DNA of 43,922 nucleotides from Actinomycetota bacterium. GTDB lineage: Bacteria; Actinomycetota; Actinomycetes; S36-B12. A model generated the notes under the pieces. That model was not told where the DNA came from, made no database searches, and saw nothing but the letters and a program-made list of their open reading frames with translations. This document shows, in pieces, positions 3,277 to 29,509 of this stretch (position 1 is its first letter; each line of letters opens with the position of its first letter). Location of the stretch: positions 1 to 43,922 of the forward strand of contig WLLZ01000003.1 in the NCBI GenBank assembly GCA_009700485.1. The letters are read 5' to 3'. Made by a program: the position numbers and the translations under genes.

Positions 3277-3291
3277 GAGTTTGGATTTCTC

Positions 3292-4152: not shown

Positions 4153-4200
4153 CACACCCATCGATGGACGATTCCAGGACCTACCTGAGTGCGAGGAACG

Positions 4201-6815: not shown

Positions 6816-7939
6816 CATTGCAACGTTCTTTTCGCGCCGCGGTCCTTGAGGAGTGCGGTCGTCCCCTCGCGATCCGGGAGTTGCAGATCCCCGAGCTCGG
6901 GGCCAGTCAGGTGCTCATCAATGTTCGATACAGCGGCGTCTGCCGTAGCCAGCTGATGGAGGCTCGGGGTATGCGAGGAGACGACCCCTGGCTACCGCAC
7001 CTTCTCGGCCATGAGGGTGTCGGAACTGTGGTGGAAACGGGACCGGGCGTGACCAAAGTGTCACCTGGTCAGGTCGTTATCATTGGATGGATCCAATCGA
7101 GTGGGCTGACGTCCGCTAATCCTATATTCATGAGTGGCGACGTCCGGATCAATGCGGGTGCCGCAACTACATTCAGCGAGATGACCGTGGTGTCTGAGAA
7201 CCGGGTTTATGCCAAGCCTGAGGGAGTCTCGGATAAAGCCGCCGTTCTCTTCGGATGCGCCCTTCTGACCGGTGCTGGCATGGTTCTCAATGAACTACCC
7301 CCTCGGGAGACGGACAACATCATCGTTATGGGATTGGGCGGTGTTGGGATGGCCGCTGTCATTGGAGCCCTGACGGCTCAACCGGCGATGGTGATCGCTG
7401 TCGACATTTCACCTGAGAAGAGGGCGTTGGCCCTAGAGTTGGGAGCCGACATAGCGCTGGACTCCTGGGATCCGGAGTTCGTTGACCACATTCGCGACCT
7501 CACCGACGGCGGAGCGGACGCTTGCTTCGAGTGCGCCGGAACCACTGCGACGATTGAGCTAGCCCTCGACTGTGTCAGGCCAGCCGGGGGCACGGTGCTC
7601 TTCGCTTCGCACCCTCCCGCGGGTGATCGGATCCGTGTTGATCCCTTCCACTTGATCAGCGGGAAGAAGTTGCTGGGGTCATGGGGGGGCGGGGCGAAGC
7701 CTGATTCAGACATCCCTCGGATGGCCGCTGCTATTCGCGGCCGGGGCATTGATCTTGAGGTACTCGTCAGCGATGAGTACGCGTTGGAGGAGGTCAACCA
7801 GGCTCTCGACGATATGGAAGCGGGTCGCACGATTCGCCCGCTACTTGGCTTGGATGAGTTATGCGCGAGTGACACACCCGACTTCTCAGCCGGTAACGGT
7901 GTCTTGATGGCCATGGGCGATGGAAGAATCGATCAGTGA
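6812..7939 (+). CDS. zinc-binding (MDR) alcohol dehydrogenase
   Basis: 'GVCRSQ', 'GHEGVG', 'GCALLTG', NAD-binding 'GLGGVG'; structural four-Cys Zn loop absent. Confidence 0.85.
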   Translation: MTLQRSFRAAVLEECGRPLAIRELQIPELGASQVLINVRYSGVCRSQLMEARGMRGDDPWLPHLLGHEGVGTVVETGPGVTKVSPGQVVIIGWIQSSGLTSANPIFMSGDVRINAGAATTFSEMTVVSENRVYAKPEGVSDKAAVLFGCALLTGAGMVLNELPPRETDNIIVMGLGGVGMAAVIGALTAQPAMVIAVDISPEKRALALELGADIALDSWDPEFVDHIRDLTDGGADACFECAGTTATIELALDCVRPAGGTVLFASHPPAGDRIRVDPFHLISGKKLLGSWGGGAKPDSDIPRMAAAIRGRGIDLEVLVSDEYALEEVNQALDDMEAGRTIRPLLGLDELCASDTPDFSAGNGVLMAMGDGRIDQ

Positions 7940-9063
7940 GGGCAACTCGAGACGTGAGCAGTCGCGGCAAAGTTCGGTTCCGGGCGTGGCTGAGCAGGGC
8001 GCCGCTTGGTCGCTCCCTACTATCAGCACGGTCGGGACTTCGTGGCACGTATTCAATACGTCGTCGCGTACATCGGGAGGCCGCGGCCATCACCCAGGCT
8101 TTGGCCATCAATCCAAACACCAGACTCCGAGTCGTCAACGACAATGCGGTCTCACCGCCAACGTATGGGAATCTCTTTGAAGTGATCATGCTCGCCCGTT
8201 TCTTGGAAGCAGGTGGTCACCGCGTCGAGTTCGACATTGTGGATTCAGGCGACAGACGAGCTGACTGGGGCGAACTAGATGCCACCGCTCAAACCAACTT
8301 CGCCCACGATCAAGTCGCCCTCGCCAGATACCTTCTGCCGAAACCCGTCGTGCAGCACATGCTGTCGTCACCCCTGAGGGTAGAGGAACAGCATGCCTGG
8401 AACCCCGCTCTTACCCTCTTTTCGGGAGCATATGATCCACCCGTGTACTCTCTGGCCCCCTACCTTTTACATGTCCTTTCCACCGGACGCACACGGTCCA
8501 TACCAGCGGGGTTTCTCCTCGACGCGAATTCCTTTCCCATCTCGATTCAAACACCGCCTCCGGAACAGCCTTACATCGCTTGGCACGTTCGTAGAGGCAC
8601 CTGGTCTCCAGAGCGCAACGCAACCGATAGTGCACTGGCGTCCGACCTACTCCAATTGCGAGAAATATTCCCGCGTCACTCCATCATGCTGTTTAGCACA
8701 CCAAACGGAATAGAGCACGCGCTACAGGTACTCTCAGATGAAGGATTGATTTCCGACATGGAACGAGACGGTCTGGCAGTGGTAGGTCAACCTGAAACTG
8801 GCTTCACCGCAGCCGTTCCTTGGATTCTGGGCGCGGACTTCTACTTCCAGCGGATCGGCGGAGGCATGGGCATAGTGCCCATCTACTCGTCAATGCCTTA
8901 CCTGCAGATCAACGATTGGAGAAGCTATTACTACGGAATCGATGGCGACCGCCTAGTGCCTTGGGCACGGGTCAACCAGCAGTACATCGTTCGCGCCGAC
9001 GCCGCCAAGATCCCAATCAGGGAAGTAATCAATAGCAGTCAGTACGGTGAATTGGTGAAGTAG
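7936..9063 (+). CDS. hypothetical protein, possible GT-B glycosyltransferase
   Basis: 375-aa ORF coupled by GTGA; 'YIAWHVRRGTW' resembles the HxRR(G)D donor-binding motif of GT11/GT23-type enzymes. Confidence 0.5.
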   Translation: MRATRDVSSRGKVRFRAWLSRAPLGRSLLSARSGLRGTYSIRRRVHREAAAITQALAINPNTRLRVVNDNAVSPPTYGNLFEVIMLARFLEAGGHRVEFDIVDSGDRRADWGELDATAQTNFAHDQVALARYLLPKPVVQHMLSSPLRVEEQHAWNPALTLFSGAYDPPVYSLAPYLLHVLSTGRTRSIPAGFLLDANSFPISIQTPPPEQPYIAWHVRRGTWSPERNATDSALASDLLQLREIFPRHSIMLFSTPNGIEHALQVLSDEGLISDMERDGLAVVGQPETGFTAAVPWILGADFYFQRIGGGMGIVPIYSSMPYLQINDWRSYYYGIDGDRLVPWARVNQQYIVRADAAKIPIREVINSSQYGELVK

Positions 9064-9177: not shown

Positions 9178-10167
9178 TCATTCATGAGTGGCAACTGCCC
9201 TCAGGCAATCGCGGCTCGTCCCGTACACGAAGTTCAACTGAGCCACTCGATCGGCGGATTGCGTGCCCAGTATCTCGTTCTTGGCTGACCGCACTGCCCT
9301 AAGGAACGGAACTAATGACTCGGGTAGGCCGTTGCGCACTTTAGTTCTCCACGCTACCCCTGGCCGATGAAACTCTTTCGGGCTTTGTTCGCCAGGCGGA
9401 TCAGGCAGTATCGGGTGTGAGCATGACTTCAAGAACTCCACGCGCCAACCTGCGCGAGTCAATGTCATTTCAAGACTTTCTGGCGAGAAGAAGCATAGGT
9501 GAGGTGTCTGAAATGCCAACGTTGCACTTCGTGATCGGAAATCGTCGTGTGGAACTTCAATTACTAATGCACCATCATCAGAGACGACTCGATGCAGATC
9601 GTCCAATAACGCGGGCACATCTCTAGCCGCATAATGTTCAAGGGAATGACTGAGGATGGCAATCTTCGCCTGCTGCCCACCTGACTCGAGGAGTTCACTG
9701 ATGGAGCCGTAACTCTTTGCACCGAACAGTCGCTGATACATGAGGTCCGCCCCGGAATTCAACTCGATTGCTGACAGGGCAGGATCTTGAAGAGTTTGCT
9801 GAGCCGTCTGAAACGCACCCCCCCAACCCGGCCCCAAATCAAGCAACGCATCCCCCGCTTGGAAGTCACAGAACATGGTGGCTAAGGACAACTGCGACAG
9901 CGAACGAAAATCGATTCCGGCATTCCCCGGAACCTTCTTTCGTCGGTCAAAATCCATGTAATATACTGATGATTTTTCGCGATAGTGACTTCGGTAGAAC
10001 TCATTTAATGACCCTGAGTCAGGTGCGGGGCTTGCTTGGCCGAAACCGCACATTTGACATACTTCGATGCTCAGGTTCGAGAATAGATCCAAGTCCGGCC
10101 AACCGCCATCAAGATATGGAAAAAAGGTAGAACCGATTTCACTGCATACCGGGCAAGCCATTGCCAC
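9178..10167 (-). CDS. class I SAM methyltransferase with N-terminal CxxC...CxxC zinc ribbon
   Basis: 'CPVC...CQMCG', 'LLDLGPGWG', 'LSHSLEH', 'LVIEVPH', 'PHLCFFSPESL'; purine-rich SD upstream. Confidence 0.8.
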   Translation of the reverse strand: MAMACPVCSEIGSTFFPYLDGGWPDLDLFSNLSIEVCQMCGFGQASPAPDSGSLNEFYRSHYREKSSVYYMDFDRRKKVPGNAGIDFRSLSQLSLATMFCDFQAGDALLDLGPGWGGAFQTAQQTLQDPALSAIELNSGADLMYQRLFGAKSYGSISELLESGGQQAKIAILSHSLEHYAARDVPALLDDLHRVVSDDGALVIEVPHDDFRSRSATLAFQTPHLCFFSPESLEMTLTRAGWRVEFLKSCSHPILPDPPGEQSPKEFHRPGVAWRTKVRNGLPESLVPFLRAVRSAKNEILGTQSADRVAQLNFVYGTSRDCLRAVATHE

Positions 10168-10239: not shown

Positions 10240-11145
10240 TTGACCGAAAGCATTCCACTAGGCCAAAATGCGCCTCACCGCCACGTGACTTGGCAAGTGC
10301 CCGACCACATCACCGTGATCGCCGAGGTCGGCATCAACCACAACGGCGACATAGCTCTGGCCAAGCAACTCATCGACATCGCTGTGGAGACCGGCTGCGA
10401 CGCCGTCAAGTTCCAAAAGCGCACCATTCACCTCGTGTACGCAGCCGAGGTCCTTGACGCTCCACGTGAGAGCCCCTGGGGCACTACCCAGCGCGCGCAG
10501 AAAGAGGGGCTCGAATTCAGTCGCGAGCAGTACCAGGAAATCGATGCCTACTGCCGTGACCGAGGTATTGCTTGGTCGGCATCGGCGTGGGATATCCCCA
10601 GCCTTGACTTCATCGAGGAGTTCGACCCGCCCTTCCATAAAGTCGCATCAGCCATGCTCACCCATCAGGCCTTCATAAGGGCAGTGGCCAGCAAAGGCCG
10701 CGTGACCTTGATTTCGACCGGCATGGCGACCTTTGACATTATTGACGAGGTCGTGGACGTGTTCAAGGCCGCTTGCACGCCGTTCGTGCTGCTTCACACC
10801 GTCTCGACGTACCCGTCACCCGAGGCCGACCTGAACCTGTCGATGATCCACACCTTGCAGGAGCGGTATGGCGTGCCTGTTGGCTATAGCGGTCACGAGC
10901 CGTCGGTATCCCCCTCGGTCGTCGCGGCAGCACTTGGTGCCACGGTGATCGAGCGCCACATCACTATCGACCGATCGATGTATGGAAGCGACCAAGCTGC
11001 TTCTTTGGAGGAGAACGGGCTGCGCCAACTCGTCAACACCATCCACAAGATCCCCTCGATGCTGGGCACCGGCGAGAAGGATTGGGCCCCCGGTGAGCGC
11101 GAAGTCGCCGGGAAGCTGCGCTATTGGGAGTCGGCGGGTGGATAG
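10240..11145 (+). CDS. NeuB-family ulosonic acid synthase (PEP-condensing), short form without SAF/AFP domain
   Basis: 'IAEVGINHNGD', 'DAVKFQKR', 'LHTVSTYP', 'GYSGHE', 'IERHIT', 'GSDQAASLE'; GGAGG SD. Confidence 0.9.
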   Translation: MTESIPLGQNAPHRHVTWQVPDHITVIAEVGINHNGDIALAKQLIDIAVETGCDAVKFQKRTIHLVYAAEVLDAPRESPWGTTQRAQKEGLEFSREQYQEIDAYCRDRGIAWSASAWDIPSLDFIEEFDPPFHKVASAMLTHQAFIRAVASKGRVTLISTGMATFDIIDEVVDVFKAACTPFVLLHTVSTYPSPEADLNLSMIHTLQERYGVPVGYSGHEPSVSPSVVAAALGATVIERHITIDRSMYGSDQAASLEENGLRQLVNTIHKIPSMLGTGEKDWAPGEREVAGKLRYWESAGG

Positions 11146-11746
11146 CGTCGACGCTCGGCGCCTTGTCCTATCCCAACTGCAGGATGCGCTGAGTGTCCAT
11201 GAAGCACTGTTGGGTTCAAGCGAGATTACCAATCAAATCGTGACGTGGGCGAAGACCTGCGCGGATTCTCTGGCCCAAGGTGGGGTGATCTTCTTCGCGG
11301 GCAACGGCGGGTCCTTCGCCGATGCTCAGCATCTCGCGGCCGAACTAACCGGCAAGATGGGCAGGATGCGCTCACCGCTTGCTGGAATCGCGTTGGGTAC
11401 AAACAGCTCATCGATGTCGGCGATCGGCAATGACTTTGGCTACCAACTCACCTTCGCTCGTGAATTGGAGGGCCTTTGCCGACCCCACTGTGTTGTCATC
11501 GCTTTGACTACGAGTGGCAACAGCGCCAACGTCCTAGAACTTGTCGATCAGGCCAACGTGATGAGTGTTCCCACTCTCGTATTCACGGGGGCCCACGGCG
11601 GCGCTGTCGCCGAGCGGTGCGATGTTATCCGCGTGCCGAGTGATCGCACCGAACGCATCCAGGAGATGCACATCCTCCTTGGTCACACGTTATGCCTGCT
11701 CATCGAGGAGTTCCTCGGACTCTTTCCATCTGAACCTGCGAGCTAG
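11138..11746 (+). CDS. SIS-domain sugar-phosphate isomerase (GmhA/phosphoheptose isomerase-like)
   Basis: 'AGNGGSFADAQHLAAEL', 'IGNDFGY', 'TTSGNSANV', 'RIQEMHI'; start reassigned to GTG 11138 overlapping the neuB-like stop. Confidence 0.85.
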   Translation: MDSVDARRLVLSQLQDALSVHEALLGSSEITNQIVTWAKTCADSLAQGGVIFFAGNGGSFADAQHLAAELTGKMGRMRSPLAGIALGTNSSSMSAIGNDFGYQLTFARELEGLCRPHCVVIALTTSGNSANVLELVDQANVMSVPTLVFTGAHGGAVAERCDVIRVPSDRTERIQEMHILLGHTLCLLIEEFLGLFPSEPAS

Positions 11747-11749
11747 TTC

Positions 11750-12580
11750 ATGGCGCGAACCTTCGACTTGGGCTGCTCCTTCGGGATTATTCAGGGCCGC
11801 CTCAGTGCCCAAACCGACCGTGGCTACCAGTCCTTCCCCTGGGAGACTTGGGAAGCCGAGTTCGGATTGGCCGCCGATCGCGGCCTTGAGCACATCGAGT
11901 GGGTGCTGGATTCCTGGCGACTTGACGAAAACCCACTCCTGAGCGATACGAGCGGCGTGATTGGACGCGCTCAGGAGACAGGGGTTCAGGTCCTCTCGGT
12001 CTGTGCTGACTACCTGATGGATCGACCCTTGGATGTAACTGACTCCGGTTCGTGGGCAGTTCTCAGTCAACTCGCTGATGCAATGCGGGAACTCGGAGCG
12101 CAGTGGCTGGTGGTCCCTTGCGTAGACCAATCGTCACTGCGCACCCCGTCATCGCTGGCTCGGTTTGCGAGCGCTGCTGATCAACTTGGCGGGGAGTTGG
12201 CCGGGACAGGTATTCGCGTCTCCCTTGAATCTGATCTCGGGCCCGCCGAGTTCGCTGCACTACTCGCCAACTTGGATCCAGAGATTTTCGGCGTCAACTA
12301 CGACATCGGTAACAGCGCCTATCTCGGGTACGCGCACGATGAGGAGTTCGACGCCTACGGCGACCGCATCTCCCTAGTTCACATAAAGGACCGACTTTTC
12401 GAGGGCGGATCAGTGCCCTTGGGGCACGGCAACGCTGACATCCCGGGGGTGATCGAGCGGCTACGGGCGATGAAGTTCAATGGCCCTGTGACGATGCAGG
12501 CTTTCCGTGATGCCCCGGGCATCGAAATCTTGGACGATCAACTGCGCTGGCTGATGCCCATCCTTGAAGGCAGCGCCTGA
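11750..12580 (+). CDS. TIM-barrel sugar-phosphate isomerase/epimerase (AP endonuclease 2 / xylose-isomerase-like fold)
   Basis: 'GIIQGRLS', 'IEW', 'SLES', metal-ligand segments 'NYDIGN' and 'VHIKDR', 'LGHGNADI'. Confidence 0.8.
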   Translation: MARTFDLGCSFGIIQGRLSAQTDRGYQSFPWETWEAEFGLAADRGLEHIEWVLDSWRLDENPLLSDTSGVIGRAQETGVQVLSVCADYLMDRPLDVTDSGSWAVLSQLADAMRELGAQWLVVPCVDQSSLRTPSSLARFASAADQLGGELAGTGIRVSLESDLGPAEFAALLANLDPEIFGVNYDIGNSAYLGYAHDEEFDAYGDRISLVHIKDRLFEGGSVPLGHGNADIPGVIERLRAMKFNGPVTMQAFRDAPGIEILDDQLRWLMPILEGSA

Positions 12581-13341
12581 TGGATCTTGGGCTCGCTGGG
12601 AGACATGTGCTGGTTGCCGGGGCTTCCCGGGGTCTGGGCTTCGCCATTGTCAGCAACCTCTTGGCCGAGGGGGCCAAGGTAACCTCGGTGGGCCGAGACC
12701 CAGAGTCACTCGCTGCCGCAAGAACGTTTTGGCTGACGGGTGAACCAAACGCCATCGTTAACACTCTTGCGTTGGACCTTTCGGATCAAGCTTCAGCCGC
12801 AACACTTGCCACCTACCTGACCGACGAAGGTGGTCTGGACGGAGTGATCGTGGTGGCCGGTAGCGGGCGGCCGACAGGTGAGCCGCAAACCACGGCCTTT
12901 GCGACAGCGACTGCACTTAATGTGATGCCCGCCTTGGTGACTCTCGAGGCGGCCGGCCCGTTACTTCGAAAGAGCTCGAGCGGTTCCGTCGTCCTCATCT
13001 CCTCTGTTGCGGCGATGGAATACATCGATTGCCCTCCTGAGTATGCCGCCGCAAAGGCGACACTGCATGCCTACGCGTCGCATTGGTCGCGTGAGTTGCG
13101 GCCGGTGCGCGTCAACGTGGTGGCCCCCGGAAACATTCTTACTGAGGGATCCGTTTGGCAGCGGCGCATGCGCGAGGATCCAACCGCGTTGGACGAGTAT
13201 CTTTCAAGAGAGGTCACCCTCGGGCGGGTGGCCGAGCCGGAGGAGGTAGCGCGCGTGGCTGTGTTTCTGGTATCCCGCGCAGCGAGCTTTATGACAGGAT
13301 CCACAGTGGTCGTGGATGGCGGACAGGTACGCCAATGGTGA
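12580..13341 (+). CDS. SDR family oxidoreductase
   Basis: 'AGASRGLG', YAAAK, 'VNVVAPGNI', 'VDGGQ'. Confidence 0.88.
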   Translation: MDLGLAGRHVLVAGASRGLGFAIVSNLLAEGAKVTSVGRDPESLAAARTFWLTGEPNAIVNTLALDLSDQASAATLATYLTDEGGLDGVIVVAGSGRPTGEPQTTAFATATALNVMPALVTLEAAGPLLRKSSSGSVVLISSVAAMEYIDCPPEYAAAKATLHAYASHWSRELRPVRVNVVAPGNILTEGSVWQRRMREDPTALDEYLSREVTLGRVAEPEEVARVAVFLVSRAASFMTGSTVVVDGGQVRQW

Positions 13342-14156
13342 GCCAATCGCTCTTCGACCTAACCGGCCGCGTAGTCGTCATAACAGGCGCCGGCGGGCTG
13401 CTCGGTCAAGAGCACGCCTTGGCAGTCGGTCGCGCTGGTGGCATACCCGTACTTCTTGAGCTCTCGCCCGAGGCCCTGGCCGCGGCGGCCCGCCGACTGG
13501 ATGCGGAGGCGATCTCGCACCTCGCCATTGAAGTTGACCTCACAAGTGAGGCCCAAATCGCTACCGCGGCGGGCGAGATCAAAAAACAGTTCGGCGCTGT
13601 GTGGGGGCTGGTCAATAACGTGGCCTCCAACCCCCCGATGGGCTCGGCGGCGCAGGGCGCTGACCGGCTTGAGGCTTTTCCGCTCACCCAATGGGATCAC
13701 GACATCCGGTTGGGGCTGACGAGTGCGTTTCTGTGTTCCCGCCACTTCGGCGAGCAGATGGCTGAAGCAGGTGGCGGTTCGATCATCAATGTGGCTTCCG
13801 ACCTCGCTCTGATCTCACCAGACCAGCGCATGTATTCCGTAGGCCTCCCGGAGGGCGCATCCGCACCGGTGAAGCCAGTTTCCTACTCGGTGGTTAAGTC
13901 GGCGCTCCTCGGATTGACGCGGTACCTCGCCACCTACTGGAGCCCGATCCCGGTGCGCTGCAACGCGCTCGTCCCCGGTTCTGTTGGCGGCACTCAGAGC
14001 CCGGACCTGACACGGGAATTGACATCCCGCATTCCACTCGCACGTCTTGCTGAACCAGGTGAGTATCAGGGGGCGCTGGTGTTCCTGCTCTCCGATGCAT
14101 CGGCATACATGACCGGCGCCAATCTGGTGATGGACGGCGGGCGCACGGCATGGTGA
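13335..14156 (+). CDS. SDR family oxidoreductase (resembles PtmA-type SDRs of nonulosonate loci)
   Basis: 'TGAGGLLG', 'YSVVKSALLGLTRYLATYW', 'YMTGANLVMDGGRTAW'; start reassigned to ATG 13335. Confidence 0.85.
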   Translation: MVSQSLFDLTGRVVVITGAGGLLGQEHALAVGRAGGIPVLLELSPEALAAAARRLDAEAISHLAIEVDLTSEAQIATAAGEIKKQFGAVWGLVNNVASNPPMGSAAQGADRLEAFPLTQWDHDIRLGLTSAFLCSRHFGEQMAEAGGGSIINVASDLALISPDQRMYSVGLPEGASAPVKPVSYSVVKSALLGLTRYLATYWSPIPVRCNALVPGSVGGTQSPDLTRELTSRIPLARLAEPGEYQGALVFLLSDASAYMTGANLVMDGGRTAW

Positions 14157-14965
14157 CGCCCGGCTTGGATGCTAATGAGAACATGATTCGCGATGAGGTC
14201 TGGGCTCTAGTTCCAGCAAGGTCAGGATCAAAGGGAATTACCGACAAGAACCTGCAGGAGGTTGAGGGTGTCAGTCTTCTTGGTCTTTCGGTTCTAGCCG
14301 GCACCGCAAGTGCCGCGATTGATCGGTGTTTTGTCAGCACGGATTCCCAAGCGTATGCCGACGAGGCCCGCCGTTACGGAGCGGAAGTGCCCTATCTCCG
14401 GCCGGATAGTGCATCCAGTGACACGGCGACTGATCTTGATGTCTTCCTTCACTTCCTCAACTGGGCCGCTGCCAATATCGAACACCTGCCGTGGGCCGTG
14501 GTGCACCTTCGCCCGACAACCCCATGCCGCGAGCCGGAGCGCGTGAATGAGGCCGTTCAACTCGCAAGAGAGGTCTCCGCATCTGCGACCGCAATTAGGT
14601 CTGTGCATGCCGCCGCAGAATCCCCCTTCAAGTGGTTTCTTCGAGATACCGACGGTTACCTAACGACGTTTGACCGAGGGCGAGAGCTCGACGCATCCAA
14701 CCGCTCTCGAGCGGAATTCGAAGATGTTTACATTCCGAACGGGTATGCGGACGTGGTTTTCACGTCTCATATCATCCGTACTGACCTACTTCATGGGAAT
14801 GCTGTTCGACCTTTTCTTACTGAGCCAGTTATCGAAGTTGATGGCCCCTTCGAACTCGAACTTCTTCGTCGGGCAGACTCTATTCCCCCGGCTCTGCTGT
14901 CGGCAGCTTCACTTGTTCGCGGTAACCGCAATTCCGCTCCGGAAAGGGAGACTACCCCTTCATGA
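14150..14965 (+). CDS. acylneuraminate cytidylyltransferase family (NeuA-like CMP-ulosonate synthetase)
   Basis: 'VPARSGSKGITDKN', 'VSTDS', 'LRPTTPCR', 'YIPNGYADV'. Confidence 0.88.
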   Translation: MVTPGLDANENMIRDEVWALVPARSGSKGITDKNLQEVEGVSLLGLSVLAGTASAAIDRCFVSTDSQAYADEARRYGAEVPYLRPDSASSDTATDLDVFLHFLNWAAANIEHLPWAVVHLRPTTPCREPERVNEAVQLAREVSASATAIRSVHAAAESPFKWFLRDTDGYLTTFDRGRELDASNRSRAEFEDVYIPNGYADVVFTSHIIRTDLLHGNAVRPFLTEPVIEVDGPFELELLRRADSIPPALLSAASLVRGNRNSAPERETTPS

Positions 14966-16302
14966 TCAAGACTGAATTCCGAACGATTGTGACAGAAGTC
15001 CCCCATCCAAAGGCTCTCGAAATGGCTGACCGTCTTGCTGCTGTGGAATCTCATTCCATGCACGGGCAACTGCCGGTCGTCTGGGATAGGGCCGTAGGGT
15101 CCTCCGTCTACGATCCTTGGGGCAATCGCTGGATCGACTTCACCAGCACGATATTCGTTGCCAACGCAGGTCATGCGCATCCGCTCATCGTCGATGCGAT
15201 TGTAAAGACCGCTCAGAAACCACTTCTTCATGCCTACAACTACCCGACCGCGGAGCGCCTGAACTATCTCGAAGAACTCATCAGGGTGACTCCCTCTTAC
15301 CTCGAGAAGGCATTCCTAGTCTCAGCGGGCACAGAGGCGATTGAAGTTGCCATCAAATTGATGCGCATGAACGCAATGGCTGCAGGCAAGCGACGTTCCG
15401 TTGTCGTCAGTTTCGAAGGCAACTGGCATGGGAGAACCACCGGCGCTCAACACCTAAGTTCTAACGTCGACCAGCGATCCTGGATTGGCCATGAGGATCC
15501 GGGCGTACTTCGTCTACCCTTCCCCTATCCGTGGATCGCGGAGGCCACGAGCGACCCTCGAGGGTTCTTCCGCGAGACGCTGCAACGTGAGTTGGACGCT
15601 CGCGGCTGGACTTTGAAGGACGACATAGCGGGTTTCATGCTTGAGACCTATCAAGGATGGGGGGCGGTCTTCTACCCGGCTGACTTCGTGAAGGAAGTGG
15701 AGCGGGCCGCAAAAGAGAGTGGTGGCCTACTTGTCTTTGACGAGATGCAGGCGGGTTTTGCGCGCACAGGTGAACTGTTCGGATACCAGCACTATGGGGT
15801 GCAACCGGATCTGGTGTGCTGCGGTAAGGGTGCAAGTTCGAGTGTGCCGCTCGCATTCGTACTGGGTTCAGGCTACCTACTCGACTTACCTTCCGTCGGC
15901 TCGATGTCATCGACGCATTCAGCGAACCCAATCAGTTGCGCAGCAGGACTTGCCAATCTCAAGGCGATTGAGAACGAGGGACTTATCGAGCGAGCGCGTG
16001 ACCTCGGACTTCAGTTCCATGCGGAGCTCAATAGCATTGCAAATGCGTCACCCGCAGTATCGAGCATTCAAGGACTTGGCATGGTCGCTGCCATCATTAC
16101 CAATGGGGTGGGCGACGCTGATGCATCCGCCATTGCCACTGAGATCTCATGGGAGTGCATGAGACAAGGGCTCTTGGTTGTCCATACTGGACGCGAGTCG
16201 GTAAAGATCGCACCGCCACTGACGATTGCCCTAGACGCAATGATCGAGGGCTTGTCCGTCCTAAGGAAGGTGATCGACGATGTCACAGCAAAGCACAGTT
16301 AG
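14962..16302 (+). CDS. class III PLP-dependent aminotransferase
   Basis: 'SAGTEAIE', 'NWHGRT', 'FDEMQAGFARTG', 'PDLVCCGKG', 'SSTHSANP'. Confidence 0.88.
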   Translation: MIKTEFRTIVTEVPHPKALEMADRLAAVESHSMHGQLPVVWDRAVGSSVYDPWGNRWIDFTSTIFVANAGHAHPLIVDAIVKTAQKPLLHAYNYPTAERLNYLEELIRVTPSYLEKAFLVSAGTEAIEVAIKLMRMNAMAAGKRRSVVVSFEGNWHGRTTGAQHLSSNVDQRSWIGHEDPGVLRLPFPYPWIAEATSDPRGFFRETLQRELDARGWTLKDDIAGFMLETYQGWGAVFYPADFVKEVERAAKESGGLLVFDEMQAGFARTGELFGYQHYGVQPDLVCCGKGASSSVPLAFVLGSGYLLDLPSVGSMSSTHSANPISCAAGLANLKAIENEGLIERARDLGLQFHAELNSIANASPAVSSIQGLGMVAAIITNGVGDADASAIATEISWECMRQGLLVVHTGRESVKIAPPLTIALDAMIEGLSVLRKVIDDVTAKHS

Positions 16303-16729
16303 CCCACTGAACGCCCTGAGGCATCATGCAGTGACAGGACCGTCGGCCAACATCCTTCAAGAATTCTATGAGTACTTCGGTTTCACCCAATTGATTATTG
16401 AGGAGTCACCCGACCCCGAGTACATCCAGGCTCTTACGGGCGGGGCCTGGTCTGCAGCACGCATCTTGAAGCTCAAGAATTCTGTTGGAGACGTGCTTGA
16501 GATCATCGAACCATCGATTTTGGCAGGCGAGTTAACCTCGGGAGGTGCAGGAAACTGGTCGCATCTCGCTTTTACTGTGCTCAGTTGTGACGAGGCCGTG
16601 AGCGACGTTCTGGGCATGGGAGGTCACTTGGTCGGAGGCCCAGTCACCAATCCTGAGGCCCCCTTTCGTGTGGCCTACGTTCGGGATCCTGCTCTCAACC
16701 TCATTGAACTCGTTGAGGCAATGCCATGA
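16280..16729 (+). CDS. VOC (glyoxalase-like) family protein
   Basis: 'LRHHAV', 'LEII', 'SHLAFTV', 'YVRDPALNLIELVE' give the H/E/H/E metal pattern. Confidence 0.75.
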   Translation: MSQQSTVSPLNALRHHAVTGPSANILQEFYEYFGFTQLIIEESPDPEYIQALTGGAWSAARILKLKNSVGDVLEIIEPSILAGELTSGGAGNWSHLAFTVLSCDEAVSDVLGMGGHLVGGPVTNPEAPFRVAYVRDPALNLIELVEAMP

Positions 16730-16771
16730 CCGCGCAACACTTTGAGGAACTGCCTGTCGGGATAGACCAAC

Positions 16772-17443
16772 ATGAGTCGTGACTACCTTGATGTCGAGTA
16801 CTCGGCAACTGCTCGGCCCATGACGGACTATCCAAGTCTTCTGGCGGCTCATTTGGCGTCGAAGTGGGATATCCGCTCGGGCCAGAGTCTGCTTGATGTT
16901 GCGTCCGGACGTGCGGAGATGTCAACAGGCTTCACCTCACTGGGGCTAAGGGTCACTGCACTGGATGCGTCCCCCGAGGCGGAGCACTTCGCCATCCAGG
17001 GGGGGGCGGACTTCATCTCAGGGGTAATCCGCCCGAACGAACCGATGCCAGTGGCCGATGCATCCTTTGACGTGGTCTTCTGCAAGTCCTTCGTTGAGCA
17101 CCTGCGCGAACCAATCAACTTCGCCGAGGATTGCTATCGAGTCTTGAAGCCTGGGGGCAAGGTCATCTTCCTGACTCCGGATTGGGAATCGAACCACCGA
17201 ATCTTCTTCGACGATGTCACCCACGTGACTCCATTCTCAACCGTCACGATGCAGCAACTGCTCGTGTTGAGCGGTTTTGAGAATGTGATCAGTTATCGGT
17301 TCAGGCAATTGCCCGTCACATGGCGATACCCGGCGATGAACGCCGTGTGTGCAGCAATCGCGCCCTTAGTGCCCAGCCGGACGACTCGGAAGTTCTTACG
17401 TTGGAGTCGCGAGTTGATGGTGTGCGGGGTGGGCATCAAGTAG
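16772..17443 (+). CDS. class I SAM-dependent methyltransferase
   Basis: 'LLDVASGRAE', 'SFDVVFCKSFVEHL', 'RVLKPGG', 'DDVTHVTPF'. Confidence 0.85.
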   Translation: MSRDYLDVEYSATARPMTDYPSLLAAHLASKWDIRSGQSLLDVASGRAEMSTGFTSLGLRVTALDASPEAEHFAIQGGADFISGVIRPNEPMPVADASFDVVFCKSFVEHLREPINFAEDCYRVLKPGGKVIFLTPDWESNHRIFFDDVTHVTPFSTVTMQQLLVLSGFENVISYRFRQLPVTWRYPAMNAVCAAIAPLVPSRTTRKFLRWSRELMVCGVGIK

Positions 17444-17539
17444 AGGAAGCCTCCTCGTGAGTCTTCACGTCGTCGACACCTCGTGTAGTCTGCACTCCGA
17501 TCAGACCAAGATTCCTATCCGCTGGGAGGCTGAGACCAA

Positions 17540-18341
17540 ATGGGACAAGTGAGAATGATGGACTTGGCCGACCTTCGTGCCTTTCTTGAAGACTGCCCCC
17601 CCCCCGGCGCCGTCTGACTTAACGCAATCATCCGGAGATGAAAGCGACCTGCCGTACGAATACGAGTTGGATGATCTCTTCCACCTTTACTCGACCGTGC
17701 GCAGAACTAGTTGCGTATCCGTCCTCGAATTCGGATCTGGTTGGTCGACGGTAGTCTTTGCGTTGGCGCTTCACGAGAATGCAGAGTATTTCGGGGACGA
17801 GCACCGGCGGCTAGTTCGCCACCCGAATCCATTTCAAATCCTGACCATCGATGCCTCCGACCACTGGCAGGAGGTGGCCCTCGCCCGGCTCCCTGACTGG
17901 CTGAGATCAACCGTGCGGCCCGTCTCATGCAGCGTCAATCTCGTTGATCGATATGGGTCGTACGTGCACCTCTACGAGAACGTCCCAGAATTCGTGGCGG
18001 ACCTTATCTATCTTGACGGGCCGGATCCGGAACAAGTCCACGGCGCAATTAACGGCTTTGAATACAGCGAACTCCATACCCTTCCGATGGGCGCTGACAT
18101 TTTGCGCATCGAACCGCATGTTTGGCCGGAGACAATGATCATCACCGACGGCCGGACAGCGAATGCTCGCTTCCTCGCCGCTCACTTGCGCCGTAATTGG
18201 CAGGTGATACATGACCCCTTCGGTGATCGAACCACGTTCCGGCTGGAGGAGACTCCATTTGGCCCGGTGATTGAGAAGCATTTGTCTACGCGACTAGCGG
18301 CGGCGAGGGAGTTGAGGGACAAAGAAGGTCCGAATATCTAG
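17540..18341 (+). pseudogene. methyltransferase-like gene apparently frameshifted at a C10 tract (main frame 17577-18341)
   Basis: Main frame has 'VLEFGSGWST' and 'DLIYLDGP'; the SD-preceded ATG 17540 frame stops at 17615-17617 but would join the main frame with one C fewer. Confidence 0.55.
17596..17605 (+). repeat. poly-C homopolymer (C10)
   Basis: gactgCCCCCCCCCCggcg read directly; longest homopolymer I noticed in the window. Confidence 0.95.
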
Positions 18342-18418
18342 CGGATTAGTGAAATGTGAGCGTTGCTGTTGATTCACGAATCGCCCAATTGCGATGGATC
18401 CTACCGTGCACAGGACGA

Positions 18419-18424
18419 TAAGAT
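18419..18424 (+). promoter_or_regulatory. putative -10 box (TAAGAT) of a leaderless transcript
   Basis: TANNNT 7 nt before ATG 18432, no SD. Confidence 0.5.
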
Positions 18425-18431
18425 TCGGCTG

Positions 18432-20246
18432 ATGAGCGAGGTCACGGATTCCAACACCACCAAAGGTGACCGCACATATCTTGTTACAAGTGCGCTTGAG
18501 CGTACTTGGCCATCGGACAGACATATCGTCTTCCTGGGCCAATGGTGCCTTCGATATTCGCGGCGCGAAGTCTGGTCAGGGCTAGACTACTCGGTCGCCC
18601 CTTACCACTGGGATGATCGAGCGCAAATACCGAAAGATCTTGAATACATCAATGACATCTATGAGGCCCTGCTCCCGGAATTGGCTCGGGTGTTAAACGA
18701 GATTCATGGAGTGAGCTACTCGGTGCGGTATTGGCGCATCGTCGTGGGTTCTTGGCTCTATTACTTCTCCCAGGTGGTCATGGATAGATGGAGAGTTCTA
18801 CAGTGCGCAAGTGAGTCTTATTCGAGGCCCACGCTTCTTAGGGTTACTCCGGATGACACACCTCTAGCCTCGCCTAACTCAGCGGCCTTTCTGCGTGCGA
18901 CTGAAAGCGACGAGTGGAATGAACGCTTGTGCGCGGACATTGCTGATCAGTGGACAAATATAGAAGTAACTAAGACCCAACAATGTCAAGTTATCAACCG
19001 CCCATTCAGGCTAAAAAGCGAGCAGGCAGGAAACGTCAGATCATCCATCCTGCGGATTCTGTACTCCATGGTTGTTAAGCCTCTGGATTGGTTAGCCCAA
19101 CGACGTATCTTCTATGGTGAGGGAGTTTCACTACATTCGGATTATCTAAGCCGGCCAAATAGGTTCGCACTTTCCGTTCTTATGCGCCAGGTTCCCTCGA
19201 TGAGTTTGCCTATCCAACTTCCACAGACTGACGCCCGAACTGCCTCGCGAGCATGGGGGCTGACGACGGCCGACGGCGATGCGTTCAAAAACGCGCTTGC
19301 GGTACTGATCCCGCAATACTTACCAACGTGCTTTCTCGAAGGATTTGAACAGGCGCAGGCTCTCGCAGCTCATTCAGGGTGGATACGCAACCCCCGTGTT
19401 GTCATGACCGCCAATGCTTTCGACAGCGATGATAGATGGAAGCTGTGGGCGGCAGAACAGGTCGACAAGGGAGCGAAGTTGGTCATTGCTCAGCATGGTG
19501 GAGGGTATGGCTCACAACAGTGGTCGGCAATGCAGAACTACGAAATGAGCATCAGCGATCGCTATCTCACATGGGGATGGAGCGACCCCCAAGAGGCTAA
19601 GGCATATCCAGCACCAGCTACGAAACTAGTAGGAATGCGCGTTAGGCGCCCAAGACGAACCGGAAAGTGCGTTCAAGTTACTGCTTCTCTGCCGAGGCAG
19701 AGCTATTGGATGTTCGGCGCCCCCATCGGGCCGCAGGTTCACGACTACATCGACGACCAGTTTCGTTTCGCTGCCGCGCTGAACGTCAATGTGCGGGAGG
19801 ACCTCTTGGTGCGTCTTTACCATCGTGACTACGGTTGGGACCTACAGCAACGATGGCAGGACCGTGAACCAACTATTGCTACTGACCCTGGTCGCCAACG
19901 ACTGGATCGCATTCTGCGCGAGGCTCGGCTCTATGTCGCAACCTACAACGCGACAACTTTTCTTGAGTCCTTCACCCAAGGAATTCCTACTGTGATCTTC
20001 TGGGACCCGGAGTTTTGGGAACTTTCGATTGAAGCCAAACCATACTTTGACGTCTTACGGCAGGCCGGTATTCTTTTCGACGATCCCGTTAGTTGTGCAG
20101 CGATGGTGAATTCAATATGGGATGACGTGCCTGCTTGGTGGGAGTCCCCTGACGTCCAGTCCGCCGTTATATCCTTTTCTGAGCGATTCGCGCACGTGGG
20201 AGCGCGCCCATTAGGTCGGCTAAAGAGTGCACTTATCGATTGGTGA
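18432..20246 (+). CDS. LIC12162-family putative transferase
   Basis: N-terminus 'LVTSALERTW...FLGQWC...PYHWDDR', 'YWRIVVGSWL', 'QHGGGYG', 'YLTWGW', 'TYNATTFLES' match my recollection of this family; GT-B-like C-terminus. Confidence 0.7.
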   Translation: MSEVTDSNTTKGDRTYLVTSALERTWPSDRHIVFLGQWCLRYSRREVWSGLDYSVAPYHWDDRAQIPKDLEYINDIYEALLPELARVLNEIHGVSYSVRYWRIVVGSWLYYFSQVVMDRWRVLQCASESYSRPTLLRVTPDDTPLASPNSAAFLRATESDEWNERLCADIADQWTNIEVTKTQQCQVINRPFRLKSEQAGNVRSSILRILYSMVVKPLDWLAQRRIFYGEGVSLHSDYLSRPNRFALSVLMRQVPSMSLPIQLPQTDARTASRAWGLTTADGDAFKNALAVLIPQYLPTCFLEGFEQAQALAAHSGWIRNPRVVMTANAFDSDDRWKLWAAEQVDKGAKLVIAQHGGGYGSQQWSAMQNYEMSISDRYLTWGWSDPQEAKAYPAPATKLVGMRVRRPRRTGKCVQVTASLPRQSYWMFGAPIGPQVHDYIDDQFRFAAALNVNVREDLLVRLYHRDYGWDLQQRWQDREPTIATDPGRQRLDRILREARLYVATYNATTFLESFTQGIPTVIFWDPEFWELSIEAKPYFDVLRQAGILFDDPVSCAAMVNSIWDDVPAWWESPDVQSAVISFSERFAHVGARPLGRLKSALIDW

Positions 20247-20600
20247 GGCAGAATCTAAACAATTGAACCTGGATTGAAATTACATTTCCCTCCGCAAAGA
20301 GCGCCCAGTTAGCGACGCCCTTAGTAATCCTAGATTAAAAACAGCCTCGGGTTAACACACAAACCCGGTCGCTTTATTCAATCGTAGAACTTCAATGCGT
20401 GGCATTTCGTGCCGGCTTACCAAATTATGGACTGGAAGTTTCACTCGGCGGGAAAGACCTTTCCTTGGATACATTTACGGGCTCCTGAATTGTCACTACC
20501 TAGGGCGCCAAGGTTTCGCTAAGCCCACATCAAATACTCACCTATGTCCCTAATCAACGTTACTACGCCCTCTAAATGAACTGTCTCTAAATAGGGACCT

Positions 20601-21575
20601 TCACGGAAAAACAACGGGCGAGGTTGAACTTGTTGACTTTCGAGCAACGACCAAAACATAACGTCCGGCGTCAGGCACATGGGTATTTAATGACATTTCA
20701 ATCTCCATCAGAATTTTTCTCTCATGGTCCTGGAGAATTCCTGGCCGAGAAATTAATGCGTGCGGGTCTCCGGGTATACCCGAACATGACCCAACTGCGG
20801 ACACTGATAGTACTTCAAGACCTGATGCTTGCATCACGTTTCTGAGTTCATCTGCATGAATCCAAGAGAACTGGATTTCTCGACCGGGTGACAATGGCCC
20901 CGAAGATGAATTCATCACCCTCCTTGCATCTGCAAATCGATTGTCCTTTAGCAGGAGCAGAACGTTGTAGTAGGTGGTTCGAAAGGAGCCGATGAAGAGC
21001 CCCTTATCTTTGAGCACTTCAACGAGCCGAGCGAACTCATTAATCCAGTTCGGGTGATAGAAAGCGACCTCTGTCATTACTGCTATATCAACGCTCCTTG
21101 ATTGCGTTCTTTTGAGTTCCTCTCCGATCTCACTGCACGTGAATACCACGTTGTCGATTCCTTCGGAAGCAGCAGCGCTGCGCGCAGTCATCAAGGCCGC
21201 CTCCGAGATGTCAATTCCGGTAACGTCTGCTTGCCGATATCGGCTGGCGAAGCGCATCGACATCCTGCCCTGTCCGCACCCTAGGTCCAGTATCGATTTG
21301 ATCGAATCCTTAACCGGCAGCATTGGCAGTATTTGCGCCCAGTACTGCTCGGCGTAATAATCCTCGCTCTCAGATGTCAACATGTTGTAATTGGTTGAGT
21401 GAATAATGGTCTGTTTTTGATCCGCATGAGAAGAGGAAAAAGGACCGCCCGAATCCAGGGCGGCGATGGCTCGCAATTCAATTGACTCAGCAGACCTTCG
21501 CGCTTTACTTGCCAAGCGCCTAAGAACGCTTTGAAAAAACCGCGTGGAGTCATTCGTTAGGGTTCGCATGTTCAC
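20601..21575 (-). CDS. class I SAM-dependent methyltransferase
   Basis: 'ILDLGCGQGR', 'VTGIDISEAAL'. Confidence 0.8.
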   Translation of the reverse strand: MNMRTLTNDSTRFFQSVLRRLASKARRSAESIELRAIAALDSGGPFSSSHADQKQTIIHSTNYNMLTSESEDYYAEQYWAQILPMLPVKDSIKSILDLGCGQGRMSMRFASRYRQADVTGIDISEAALMTARSAAASEGIDNVVFTCSEIGEELKRTQSRSVDIAVMTEVAFYHPNWINEFARLVEVLKDKGLFIGSFRTTYYNVLLLLKDNRFADARRVMNSSSGPLSPGREIQFSWIHADELRNVMQASGLEVLSVSAVGSCSGIPGDPHALISRPGILQDHERKILMEIEMSLNTHVPDAGRYVLVVARKSTSSTSPVVFP

Positions 21576-22214: not shown

Positions 22215-22850
22215 TTACGACTTTCCGGAGAAGACGACTCGCATCACTATGGGATCTTCACTCCCGTATGGTGCGAAGCCACGTTCAACCTCAAAAGAGT
22301 TGACGGTAAATCGCCTGTCGACCTTCTCTTTGAACTCATCCGGGACGATAAAGCGCCGGTAGTGATCTGTCATGTAAGTGTTTCGTTCAATCAATTCACC
22401 TTGCTCGTAAAGTTCATCAAAGATGGTCCGCGCCTCAATGCAGACCAATATTGGGCCTAAATCGTATTCTGCAAGGTGATCCAGCAAGGCGTTCTCGGCT
22501 ACCTCAGAATCTGCATGTAGCGAAAATCTACTGTAGACAACAAGTCTGCTCGCCTCCAAAGTGGCGAAATTGACTTTCGAAAAGTCTCCTACCGTAAGGG
22601 AATAGCGCTGAGTCGCAATCCGTGCTCCCAAGAAGCGCTCGCCTGCACTCTGTATCGCATTGGCGGATAGGTCGACACCTGTATAGAAATCGGCGCGGCG
22701 CACAAGTGCGAGACCATCACGTCCATTGCCGCACCCGAGTTCGACCACCGAATCAGTTGGAAGGAGTAGATCAGCCGCTACTTTCGTACAGAACGGAGAC
22801 GGAGAATCCTCATTGAAATCAGCGTAGTGGTGGTCCCAGAAGGCAGTCAT
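22215..22850 (-). CDS. class I SAM-dependent methyltransferase
   Basis: 'VVELGCGNGRDG', 'GVDLS', 'YSRFSLHA', 'DHYRRF'; GAGGA SD. Confidence 0.82.
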   Translation of the reverse strand: MTAFWDHHYADFNEDSPSPFCTKVAADLLLPTDSVVELGCGNGRDGLALVRRADFYTGVDLSANAIQSAGERFLGARIATQRYSLTVGDFSKVNFATLEASRLVVYSRFSLHADSEVAENALLDHLAEYDLGPILVCIEARTIFDELYEQGELIERNTYMTDHYRRFIVPDEFKEKVDRRFTVNSFEVERGFAPYGSEDPIVMRVVFSGKS

Positions 22851-25101: not shown

Positions 25102-25202
25102 CGTCACTTCCCCGGAGCGCAGATAGGCCCACTGTTTTGACGCGCCTACAATCGTGCGAATCCCACCCGGGTGTCCCACTCAAGCTGAGAGGTGACCGGA
25201 CC

Positions 25203-26591: not shown

Positions 26592-26675
26592 CGTTAAATG
26601 TTCTATGGTTCGAGGTCACCCACATGCATCGGTCATAGTCCTCACCATTATCCGGCGAAGCGCCCCAATATTTCT

Positions 26676-27830: not shown

Positions 27831-27860
27831 GCTTATACGTCCCATTCCCCGCGTGTCCGG

Positions 27861-28619: not shown

Positions 28620-28645
28620 GGCTCAAGCCTCCCAGATGCGGGCGG

Positions 28646-29482: not shown

Positions 29483-29509
29483 CCGACCATGATCTCACTT
29501 TTCGGCGGC

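Follow-up and report, generated by a model that had tools for sequence, protein, structure and literature searches.

Sialic-acid-like sugars shape how microbes are recognized by phages, hosts, and immune systems, and their prediction from genomes rests on UDP-N-acetylhexosamine (UDP-HexNAc)-based routes to neuraminic (Neu), legionaminic (Leg), and pseudaminic (Pse) acids. Precedents exist for a general phosphosugar logic, and a short form of the synthase NeuB is widespread in microbes. A synthase of 3-deoxy-D-glycero-D-galacto-nonulosonate (Kdn) 9-phosphate (Kdn-9-P), a phosphatase, and a CMP-Kdn synthetase are described from Bacteroides and Prymnesium (PMC6200933). In the KL1 and KL2 capsule loci of Serratia marcescens, neuB (2241 bp) encodes NeuB joined to a COG1082 sugar phosphate isomerase/epimerase and is accompanied by neuA; this capsule holds KDN and Neu5Ac, and neuB is needed for the KDN-containing capsule (PMC9000132). 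In Leptospira, a second nonulosonic acid (NulO) synthase forms one protein with a phosphatase and has an aminotransferase and NeuA as neighbors; an animal-like phosphosugar route was proposed for it (PMC3438082), and the gene list of a serovar Hardjo locus includes phosphoheptose isomerase, NeuB synthase, and cytidylyltransferases (preprint 10.1101/771931). CMP-linked ten-carbon (C10) ulosonic acids are reported from Magnetospirillum in a preprint whose accessible part assigns no genes to them (10.64898/2026.04.20.719630). NeuB homologues that lack the SAF domain make up ~30% of NulO synthase matches in UniProt and are common in environmental bacteria, with no function assigned in the accessible part of the source (PMC8208679). 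Here, we compare these systems with an operon (10240–20246, + strand) of an Actinomycetota bacterium (S36-B12; assembly GCA_009700485.1, contig WLLZ01000003.1), in which a SAF-less NeuB-family synthase, hereafter NeuBs, is encoded next to a GmhA-type SIS isomerase and a xylose-isomerase-like TIM barrel. The window analyzed, 43,922 nucleotides, spans its 43.9-kb contig from end to end; the genome measures 1.93 Mb and is 77% complete. This operon probably encodes a self-contained, nucleotide-hexosamine-independent pathway to a CMP-activated 3-deoxy-2-ulosonic acid on a surface glycan.

A clade of short NeuB-family synthases

NeuBs (10240–11145, + strand; 301 aa, with a TTG start preceded by GGAGG) matched PF03102 over the whole profile (1.5e-70) and has no SAF domain, the protein ending ~20 residues after the NeuB domain. 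In NeuB, this antifreeze-like C-terminal domain completes the active site of the partner subunit. Scores stayed below the equivalog cut-offs of both TIGR03569 (NeuB; 234.7 bits vs 399.65) and TIGR03586 (PseI; 180.9 bits vs 340.25), and the closest PDB match was 6ncs, a SAF-less 290-aa Leptospira enzyme (1.1e-42), followed by PseI, SpsE, and N. meningitidis NeuB. We built a quick IQ-TREE maximum-likelihood tree of 96 NeuB-domain proteins from the window and fetched loci, its rows being the best matches to the query plus other NeuB-domain proteins in their loci. All 83 SAF-less rows, NeuBs among them, formed one group (Shimodaira-Hasegawa-like approximate likelihood ratio test, SH-aLRT, 99), with four NeuB-SAF-TIM fusions as the sister group (SH-aLRT 82), and eight SAF-bearing paralogues, including the second NeuB of the window, stood apart. 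NeuBs, separate from these paralogues and below both cut-offs, belongs to a distinct clade.

The metal and phosphoenolpyruvate (PEP) motifs are retained in the NeuBs alignment, including the equivalents of K53/Q55, H215, and H236 of NeuB. Of the residues E25, E134, and E234 named for N. meningitidis NeuB (PMC8208679), the equivalents of E25 and E234 were kept in 83/83 short rows together with those of two metal-binding histidines (E29, E238, H219, and H240 in NeuBs). The position of the catalytic acid E134, in contrast, held M, S, C, L, or V in all 83 short rows (Met139 in NeuBs) and D or E in 12 of the 13 others. The equivalent of F112 was W in 83/83, a substitution already noted for the SAF-less group (PMC8208679). 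A clade-specific loop (residues 62–93) and the short tail carry basic residues, of which K60, R61, and R294 were present in 83/83 rows, R76 in 82/83, K88 in 81/83, and K292 in 80/83; these residues may bind a sugar phosphate.

Gene neighborhoods and natural fusions

In a set of 5.8 billion proteins, the best 120 relatives of NeuBs were all ~300 aa long and 66–94% identical, and 592 stretches were confirmed in species genomes. Neighbor counts come from the best 80 of these 592 stretches (50–61% identity), loci that are not independent of one another and that represent ~22 phylum-level groups, including archaea and Gram-positives. Members of the clade occur in Prochlorococcus, SAR11, SAR116, Caulobacter, Leptospirales, Lachnospiraceae, Acidobacteriota, Methanoperedens, Thermoplasmatales, and Nitrososphaerota. 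Neighboring open reading frames (ORFs) were clustered without prior labels, the clusters were named by Pfam, and their members were counted with profiles (E ≤1e-15, within 10 kb). A KdsC-like HAD phosphatase was found in 41/80 loci, a NeuA-like cytidylyltransferase (CTP) in 38, a GmhA-like SIS in 36, a classical short-chain dehydrogenase (SDR) in 33, a TIM barrel in 23, a thiamine diphosphate (ThDP) enzyme in 21, a class III aminotransferase in 15, Methyltransf_11 in 14, a VOC protein in 11, a class IV aminotransferase in 10, and a radical-SAM/SPASM protein in nine; HAD or SIS was present in 64. Searches by tblastn with the window proteins agreed with these counts (SIS 35, TIM 23, CTP 23, and class III aminotransferase 15 of the 80 loci). 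SIS and TIM are conserved next to the short NeuB, as the initial annotation had anticipated for its synteny check.

The loci are modular and comprise three cassettes. Cassette A consists of CTP, a methyltransferase, and either a class III aminotransferase with VOC or a class IV aminotransferase; class III aminotransferases co-occurred with CTP in 14/15 loci and with VOC in 11/15, and VOC was never present without them. Leptospirales locus L009 has synthase, CTP, class III aminotransferase, VOC, and methyltransferase in the same order as the window. Cassette B joins TIM to SDR or GFO oxidoreductases, with an SDR in 21 and SIS in 18 of the 23 TIM loci. Cassette C pairs ThDP with FkbM (14/21) and nearly excludes CTP (1/21). 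Among the 25 aminotransferase loci, a radical-SAM/SPASM gene and the TIM cassette never occurred together (nine vs 13 loci, with neither in three; Fisher 1e-4, which overstates the case because the loci are related to one another), and this mutual exclusion fits a role in supplying a keto group. The small radical-SAM/SPASM gene, found with an aminotransferase in L004, L007, L009, L011, L014, L022, L033, L044, and L067, may be an alternative source of the keto group that is transaminated. The synthase genes are surrounded by glycosyltransferases and by ABC exporters, either fused or of Wzm/Wzt type, and in some Bacillota by Maf (MptE-like) flagellin glycosyltransferases; these surroundings point to surface glycans as the products.

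The strongest evidence came from natural fusions. A search for longer proteins retrieved domains of the NeuBs clade, 46–58% identical to NeuBs of the window, fused to the same families that neighbor it. P0122 combines NeuBs with a TIM half whose identity to the window TIM is 37% along its entire length (1e-56), and P0124 combines NeuBs with a SIS domain 37% identical to the window SIS (4e-37). Many Actinomycetota proteins of ~680 aa consist of NeuBs, a cytidylyltransferase, and HAD; among the 120 matches listed, PF02348 occurred in 111 and a HAD family as well in 57 (hand count). The cytidylyltransferase lies at the N-terminus in P0126, and further fusion partners were Methyltransf_11 (P0125), a Maf domain, and a B12 radical-SAM domain. 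In L041, a protein encoded at 2904–4463 joins NeuB to a cupin with a weak D-lyxose/mannose-isomerase-like match, another ketose-aldose isomerase partner. The fusions indicate that SIS, TIM, phosphatase, and cytidylyltransferase act on the same molecule as NeuBs, and, together with the SIS, TIM, HAD, and CTP neighbors, they point to a route on sugar phosphates that is independent of UDP-HexNAc. That NeuB, SIS, and TIM form one such unit was claimed in the initial annotation and is supported here. The gene arrangement is beyond chance, recurring in many phyla and as gene fusions, and the clade forms a coherent family that moves horizontally and is linked to sugar-phosphate enzymes and exchangeable tailoring cassettes.

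The four NeuB-SAF-TIM fusions (L008, L056, L063, and L082) were considered as a Rosetta stone for the window and rejected, since their TIM domains matched the profile of window-type TIM only at ~1e-6 or not at all (2/4 matched); they count as superfamily-level support only, and the fusion that counts is P0122.

Several other members of the clade had distinct settings. L041, from Lachnospiraceae, also encodes a Maf flagellin glycosyltransferase and, separately, a short NeuB accompanied by SIS and ThDP. In Gastranaerophilales/Melainabacteria (L047–L054, L058, L059, L065, L068, L071, L073, L074, and L079), short NeuB and HAD stand in a fixed non-glycan context of a histidine kinase, a FliO-like ORF, a TPR protein, and an aspartokinase, with no cytidylyltransferase nearby, and the pair looks like a housekeeping use. 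Only three phage records matched, and two unannotated uncultured marine virus records (MH319754.1, 87485–88288; LR756508.1, 322772–323521) encode SAF-less NeuB homologues with 39–41% identity. One Atlas cluster of SAF-less NeuB homologues is labeled 65% viral.

Proposed pathway

The gene families, their conserved linkage, the fusions, and the distinct synthase were observed directly, and from them we infer a substrate, an order of steps, a position of amination, and a chain length. The GmhA-type SIS, possibly after 3-epimerization by the TIM enzyme, would convert a common ketose phosphate into a manno-type or epimerized aldose phosphate, which NeuBs would condense with PEP to an ulosonate phosphate following the logic of Kdn-9-P and of 3-deoxy-D-manno-octulosonic acid 8-phosphate (Kdo-8-P). 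The phosphate would be taken off by an enzyme encoded outside the operon, TIM and the two SDRs could edit stereocenters or create a keto group, and the class III aminotransferase with its VOC partner may then install an amino group, with methylation by the methyltransferase. The NeuA-like enzyme would make the CMP-sugar, and the LIC12162-family transferase would add the activated sugar to the glycan. The TIM and SDR cassette could also act after condensation, not before. By analogy, the product is most likely a nine-carbon (C9) Kdn-type acid or a stereoisomer, given that HAD relatives resemble KDN-9-P phosphatase, that streptomycetes combine Kdn with SAF-less NeuB homologues, and that the Serratia fusion accompanies KDN.

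The SIS gene (11138–11746, + strand; 202 aa; SIS_2 3.8e-16) starts, from our reading of the DNA, at GTG 11138 within the end of the NeuBs gene, whose stop it overlaps. The protein scored 143.2–144.6 bits against TIGR00441 (cut-off 209.45), below every GmhA equivalog cut-off, and matched C. jejuni GmhA (1tk9) at 5.3e-43. Aligned with 1tk9 and 2xbl, it keeps GNGGS.ADAQH.AAE, TSGNS, and IQEMH..GH, presumably the catalytic, metal, and phosphate-loop motifs. The TTDTS loop of GmhA reads GTNSS in the window SIS, and Asn replaces Asp there in 13 of 30 aligned SIS neighbors, that of the window included, a change that may be a specificity switch. The loop reads T(V/T/A)N(T/S)S in the SIS of L017, L020, L021, L028, L031, L034, L035, L040, L041, L042, L055, and L062; the remaining SIS neighbors keep Asp or have other residues at this position.

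These features bear on a different chain length, in which SIS keeps the sedoheptulose-7-phosphate of GmhA and NeuBs extends D-glycero-D-manno-heptose-7-phosphate, or a 3-epimer made with the TIM enzyme, to a 3-deoxy-dec-2-ulosonic acid. The clear GmhA-type character of SIS, with its catalytic and phosphate-binding motifs, speaks for such a ten-carbon product, as does the fact that it is the sole GmhA-like gene found in the 77%-complete genome. Mass spectrometry has moreover revealed CMP-linked ulosonic acids with a C10 marker fragment in Magnetospirillum gryphiswaldense (bioRxiv 10.64898/2026.04.20.719630). The Magnetospirillum acids, however, bear two N-acetyl groups and may arise otherwise, SIS lies below every GmhA cut-off, its altered loop hints at another substrate, and the HAD relatives most resemble a C9 phosphatase. 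We consider a ten-carbon acid improbable; were it made, and then aminated, methylated, and CMP-activated, the operon would provide the first genetic basis for C10 CMP-ulosonic acids known only by mass spectrometry.

The TIM barrel (11750–12580, + strand; AP_endonuc_2, PF01261, 4.3e-22) had no PDB match by sequence. Its AlphaFold model (pLDDT 92.9) was closest to the L-xylulose-5-phosphate 3-epimerase UlaE (3cqi/3cqj; TM 0.81–0.82, E 8.6e-15), followed by IolE, the 3-keto-glucoside 4-epimerase YcjR, Art22, and IolI. All five are metal enzymes whose chemistry involves enolization adjacent to a carbonyl. The TIM family shows no variation at E160, D185, and H211; at the last (fourth) metal-ligand position, the alignment seems to give the window Q and P0122 E. 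The protein reached only 21.1 bits against the UlaE-type model TIGR00542 (cut-off 272.15). The initial annotation noted that this TIM family includes ketose-phosphate C3 epimerases; a role as an epimerase is a fold-level prediction from the model. Downstream lie the classical SDRs SDR1 (12580–13341, + strand; adh_short_C2 2e-37) and SDR2 (13335–14156, + strand, its start corrected to ATG 13335, overlapping the SDR1 stop). Among NCBIfam models, SDR2 scored best with those of gluconate 5-dehydrogenase, D-mannonate oxidoreductase, and KduD type, in each case below cut-off. Homologues of SDR1 and SDR2 were detected by tblastn in 14/80 and 28/80 loci. An analogy with the Ptm genes of C. jejuni, in which PtmF would be a SIS isomerase accompanying the SDR PtmA, was dropped because a table in PMC4481668 gives PtmF as a 326-aa oxidoreductase.

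The NeuA-like CMP-ulosonate synthetase (14150–14965, + strand; CTP_transf_3 1.3e-16) scored 82 bits against the PseF model vs 30 bits against KdsB models and matched the CMP-Neu5Ac synthetase 6ifd over residues 12–231 (5.4e-23). It is followed by a class III (GABA/acetylornithine-type) aminotransferase (14962–16302, + strand; PF00202 4e-81) that meets no NCBIfam cut-off, and by a VOC/glyoxalase-fold protein (16280–16729, + strand) with a direct Pfam E of only 0.028 and 3.5e-11 against a profile of 10 syntenic homologues, whose scanned representative from L016 matched Pfam Glyoxalase at 2.7e-19. The S-adenosylmethionine-dependent methyltransferase (16772–17443, + strand) matched Methyltransf_11 at 4.1e-16. 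Last in the operon is a 627-aa LIC12162-family transferase (18363–20246, + strand), missed by Pfam, which scored 471.1 bits against TIGR04331 (cut-off 225; residues 40–613 against profile 1–574 of 585) and matched LIC12162-family predicted structures in the Atlas (TM 0.90). This transferase, syntenic in 4/80 loci and described beside neuABC in Herbaspirillum (PMC6679464), is likely the glycosyltransferase for the CMP-sugar.

In the neighborhoods, HAD usually follows the synthase directly, at a median distance of 877 bases, and the one HAD tested (L019) matched KDN-9-P phosphatase structures from B. thetaiotaomicron at 1.3e-23 and KdsC at only 1.3e-17. This likeness is among the arguments for plain Kdn, a reading in which SIS isomerizes fructose-6-phosphate (Fru-6-P) to mannose-6-phosphate (Man-6-P), NeuBs is a Kdn-9-P synthase, the NeuA-like enzyme gives CMP-Kdn, and the TIM, SDR, aminotransferase, VOC, and methyltransferase genes contribute to other sugars, or to substituents, in the same glycan. 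The GmhA reaction yields the manno configuration, and the same stereochemistry applied to Fru-6-P would give Man-6-P. Actinomycetota carry the fusions of CTP, HAD, and NeuBs; streptomycetes make a Kdn teichulosonic acid (PMC11481543), and their NeuB homologues lack SAF (PMC8208679); and a NeuB-isomerase fusion accompanies KDN in Serratia (PMC9000132). Yet a window-type TIM is fused directly to NeuBs in P0122, and the tight trio of CTP, class III aminotransferase, and VOC beside NeuBs (14/15 and 11/15 loci) argues for action on the same sugar. An unmodified Kdn is, in our judgment, a rather unlikely product, and we favor a tailored ulosonic acid made by the whole operon.

Several observations weigh against this favored pathway. 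No phosphatase gene is present in the window, and a search of the genome, at 77% completeness, turned up no KdsC-like HAD; across the 80 loci, HAD and CTP rarely occur together (10 with both, 31 with HAD only, and 28 with CTP only), and HAD is present in only three of the 15 class III aminotransferase loci, so that in the window architecture phosphate removal lacks an assigned enzyme. Loss of the acid at the E134 position could mean chemistry unlike that of known NeuB enzymes, and our tree was built without characterized Kdn-9-P, Neu, Leg, or Pse synthases. With what appears to be Q at the last ligand position of the window TIM, two-base epimerization by this enzyme cannot be taken for granted. 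Functions of the aminotransferase, VOC, and methyltransferase are proposed by analogy only, and the neighbor counts share the dependence among loci mentioned above.

Genomic context

Pfam and NCBIfam scans covered ~40 ORFs of the window. The operon is tightly packed from 10240 to 17443, with genes overlapping or 1–42 bases apart. All nine genes listed in the initial annotation (NeuB, SIS, TIM, two SDRs, NeuA-like, aminotransferase, VOC, and methyltransferase) were recovered in Pfam, NCBIfam, and profile searches as a tightly coupled set; the end placed at 17443 was too early, as the unit runs on through orf254 (17577–18341, + strand) and the transferase to 20246, and the inventory had missed both this transferase and a second NeuB set ~13 kb downstream. 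orf254 has a weak methyltransferase-like signal (Methyltransf_24 4.2e-4, below cut-off) and no homologue in the 80 loci by tblastn. A terminator-like hairpin 3' of the last gene (20347–20368, + strand) is only a hint, terminator-like sites in the region being no more frequent than in shuffled sequence.

The second ulosonic acid set (23022–34398) includes a DegT aminotransferase, GT2 and GT4 genes, an aldo-keto reductase, an RmlD-like reductase, a second CTP_transf_3 gene (27861–28619, − strand), a true PseB dehydratase (30301–31416; 489 bits vs cut-off 407.75), and a SAF-bearing NeuB (32399–33421) that scored 259 bits against the NeuB and 225 bits against the PseI model, both below cut-off. 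Neither PseG nor PseH was seen in this set, which may thus also be a non-standard route. PseB, DegT, and the second cytidylyltransferase, with a PIG-L deacetylase encoded in the window, raise the prospect that NeuBs is a canonical nonulosonic acid synthase condensing PEP with an N-acyl hexosamine supplied by PseB and DegT, to which SIS, TIM, and SDR would be unrelated. The SAF-bearing NeuB, however, directly follows PseB and the RmlD-like gene and is their natural partner, NeuBs lacks SAF and the E134 acid and has natural fusions to SIS, TIM, and HAD, and no PseG, PseH, or NeuC/LegG was found among the ORFs scanned, nor any acetyltransferase family. We therefore consider a canonical role very improbable. 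The absence of NeuC, LegG, PseG, dehydratase, and acetyltransferase genes stated in the initial annotation is correct for the operon and, as regards NeuC, PseG, and acetyltransferase, for the ~40 window ORFs scanned; the window does carry a dehydratase, PseB.

Upstream, a + strand block (1239–9063) encodes E1 alpha and beta subunits, an FkbM methyltransferase, an SDR, an acetolactate-synthase-like ThDP enzyme (5001–6815), a zinc alcohol dehydrogenase (Zn-ADH), and an uncharacterized 375-aa ORF. The Omnitrophota locus L044 has a syntenic counterpart of this SDR, ThDP, and Zn-ADH trio (38–46% identity) immediately upstream of its short NeuB. The near exclusion of cytidylyltransferase by ThDP near short NeuB suggests a separate fate of the keto acid, for example decarboxylation, and in the window the ThDP enzyme might likewise decarboxylate the ulosonate, with the resulting 2-deoxy higher aldose going on to tailoring. 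Such chain extension draws on the presence of ThDP within 10 kb of the synthase in 21/80 loci, usually directly after NeuBs, SIS, or HAD and often followed by FkbM, and on the window's own ThDP gene. That gene, though, belongs to a separate unit with an opposite-strand gene between it and the operon, is only 30–36% identical to NeuBs-adjacent ThDP genes (46% to that of L044), and the operon has a NeuA-like gene and a transferase of its own. Chain extension is accordingly, in our estimate, highly unlikely here, and the CMP-activated acid remains our preferred product.

Glycan genes fill the contig, an ABC exporter and glycosyltransferases among them. The 44-kb contig carries nine methyltransferase-like genes, one with a weak signal (583–1242, 3292–4152, 9178–10167 on the − strand, 16772–17443, 17577–18341, 20601–21575 on the − strand, 22215–22850 on the − strand, 29561–30406, and 42478–43248), a number that makes heavy methylation of the resulting glycan or glycans probable. 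The short NeuB was detected in none of 11 genomes from the same genus, and family genomes held only distant NeuB homologues (30–38% identity, in 3/18), which makes the locus look like an accessory island. Flagellin glycosylation was dropped as a target because Flagellin_N was not found in the genome, an absence that is unproven at 77% completeness. Photo_RC, sought as a sign of a cyanobacterial host, was likewise not found, nor was 16S rRNA.

Comparison with known systems

The clade ranges from Prochlorococcus and SAR11 to Methanoperedens, Lachnospiraceae, and Leptospirales. Identifying its product or products would let genome annotation cover a further class of surface sugars. The product could explain unassigned CMP-keto acids in metabolomic surveys, and the clade would supply enzymes for rare ulosonic acids from cheap sugar phosphates. 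A limited literature search found no pathway assignment for the set of NeuB, GmhA-like, TIM, SDR, and class III aminotransferase genes, and a likewise limited search aimed at such terms found no paper naming a ten-carbon ulosonic acid. The system was initially put forward as undescribed, which goes too far, given that phosphosugar-fed NeuB homologues are known or proposed in Bacteroides, Leptospira, and Serratia.

Canonical NeuB, LegI, and PseI share with NeuBs a NeuB TIM barrel that aligns over its full length, with the equivalents of E25, K53/Q55, H215, E234, and H236 kept. NeuBs differs in lacking SAF, the E134 acid, and a NeuC, LegG, or PseG partner, in its sub-cut-off scores, and in its extra basic loop. 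GmhA, similarly, has the fold and catalytic motifs of the window SIS, which departs from it in its sub-cut-off scores, in the change of the sugar-loop Asp to Asn, and in standing beside or being fused to a NeuB-type synthase, not beside heptose nucleotide genes.

The Kdo pathway (KdsD, KdsA, KdsC, and KdsB) proceeds through the same four steps, with a SIS-domain isomerase, condensation of PEP with an aldose phosphate, a HAD phosphatase, and a CTP_transf_3 cytidylyltransferase. In the operon, however, a NeuB-family synthase takes the place of one from the KdsA/DAHP-synthase family, the GmhA-type SIS has no CBS domains, and the cytidylyltransferase is nearer to PseF/NeuA.

Leptospira has in common with the window a SAF-less NeuB (6ncs) and a LIC12162-family transferase. 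The Leptospira authors proposed, from genes without enzymology, Neu5Ac formation from ManNAc-6-phosphate, and the accessible part of their account does not feature a cassette of TIM and two SDRs (PMC3438082); 6ncs is also farther from the window NeuBs (1.1e-42) than are the 80 loci (50–61% identity). Serratia resembles the window route in joining a NeuB-family synthase to a xylose-isomerase-like TIM barrel, with no neuC in the part of the report available (PMC9000132). The Serratia-sized NeuB-SAF-TIM fusions in our loci nonetheless group as sister to the short clade (SH-aLRT 82), and the resemblance of their TIM domains to that of the window is only remote (~1e-6).

The Kdn systems of Bacteroides thetaiotaomicron (BT1713 phosphatase, BT1714 Kdn-9-P synthase, and BT1715 CMP-Kdn synthetase) and Prymnesium parvum use a NeuB homologue that condenses PEP with a sugar 6-phosphate, a KdsC-like HAD, and a NeuA-like enzyme, a logic shared with the operon (PMC6200933). 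The accessible part of that source describes no dedicated isomerase, TIM, SDRs, aminotransferase, VOC, or methyltransferase for these organisms. In the Bacteroides-type arrangement, a phosphatase gene lies beside the synthase, a gene that the window lacks, whereas a NeuA-like CMP-ulosonate synthetase is present in both.

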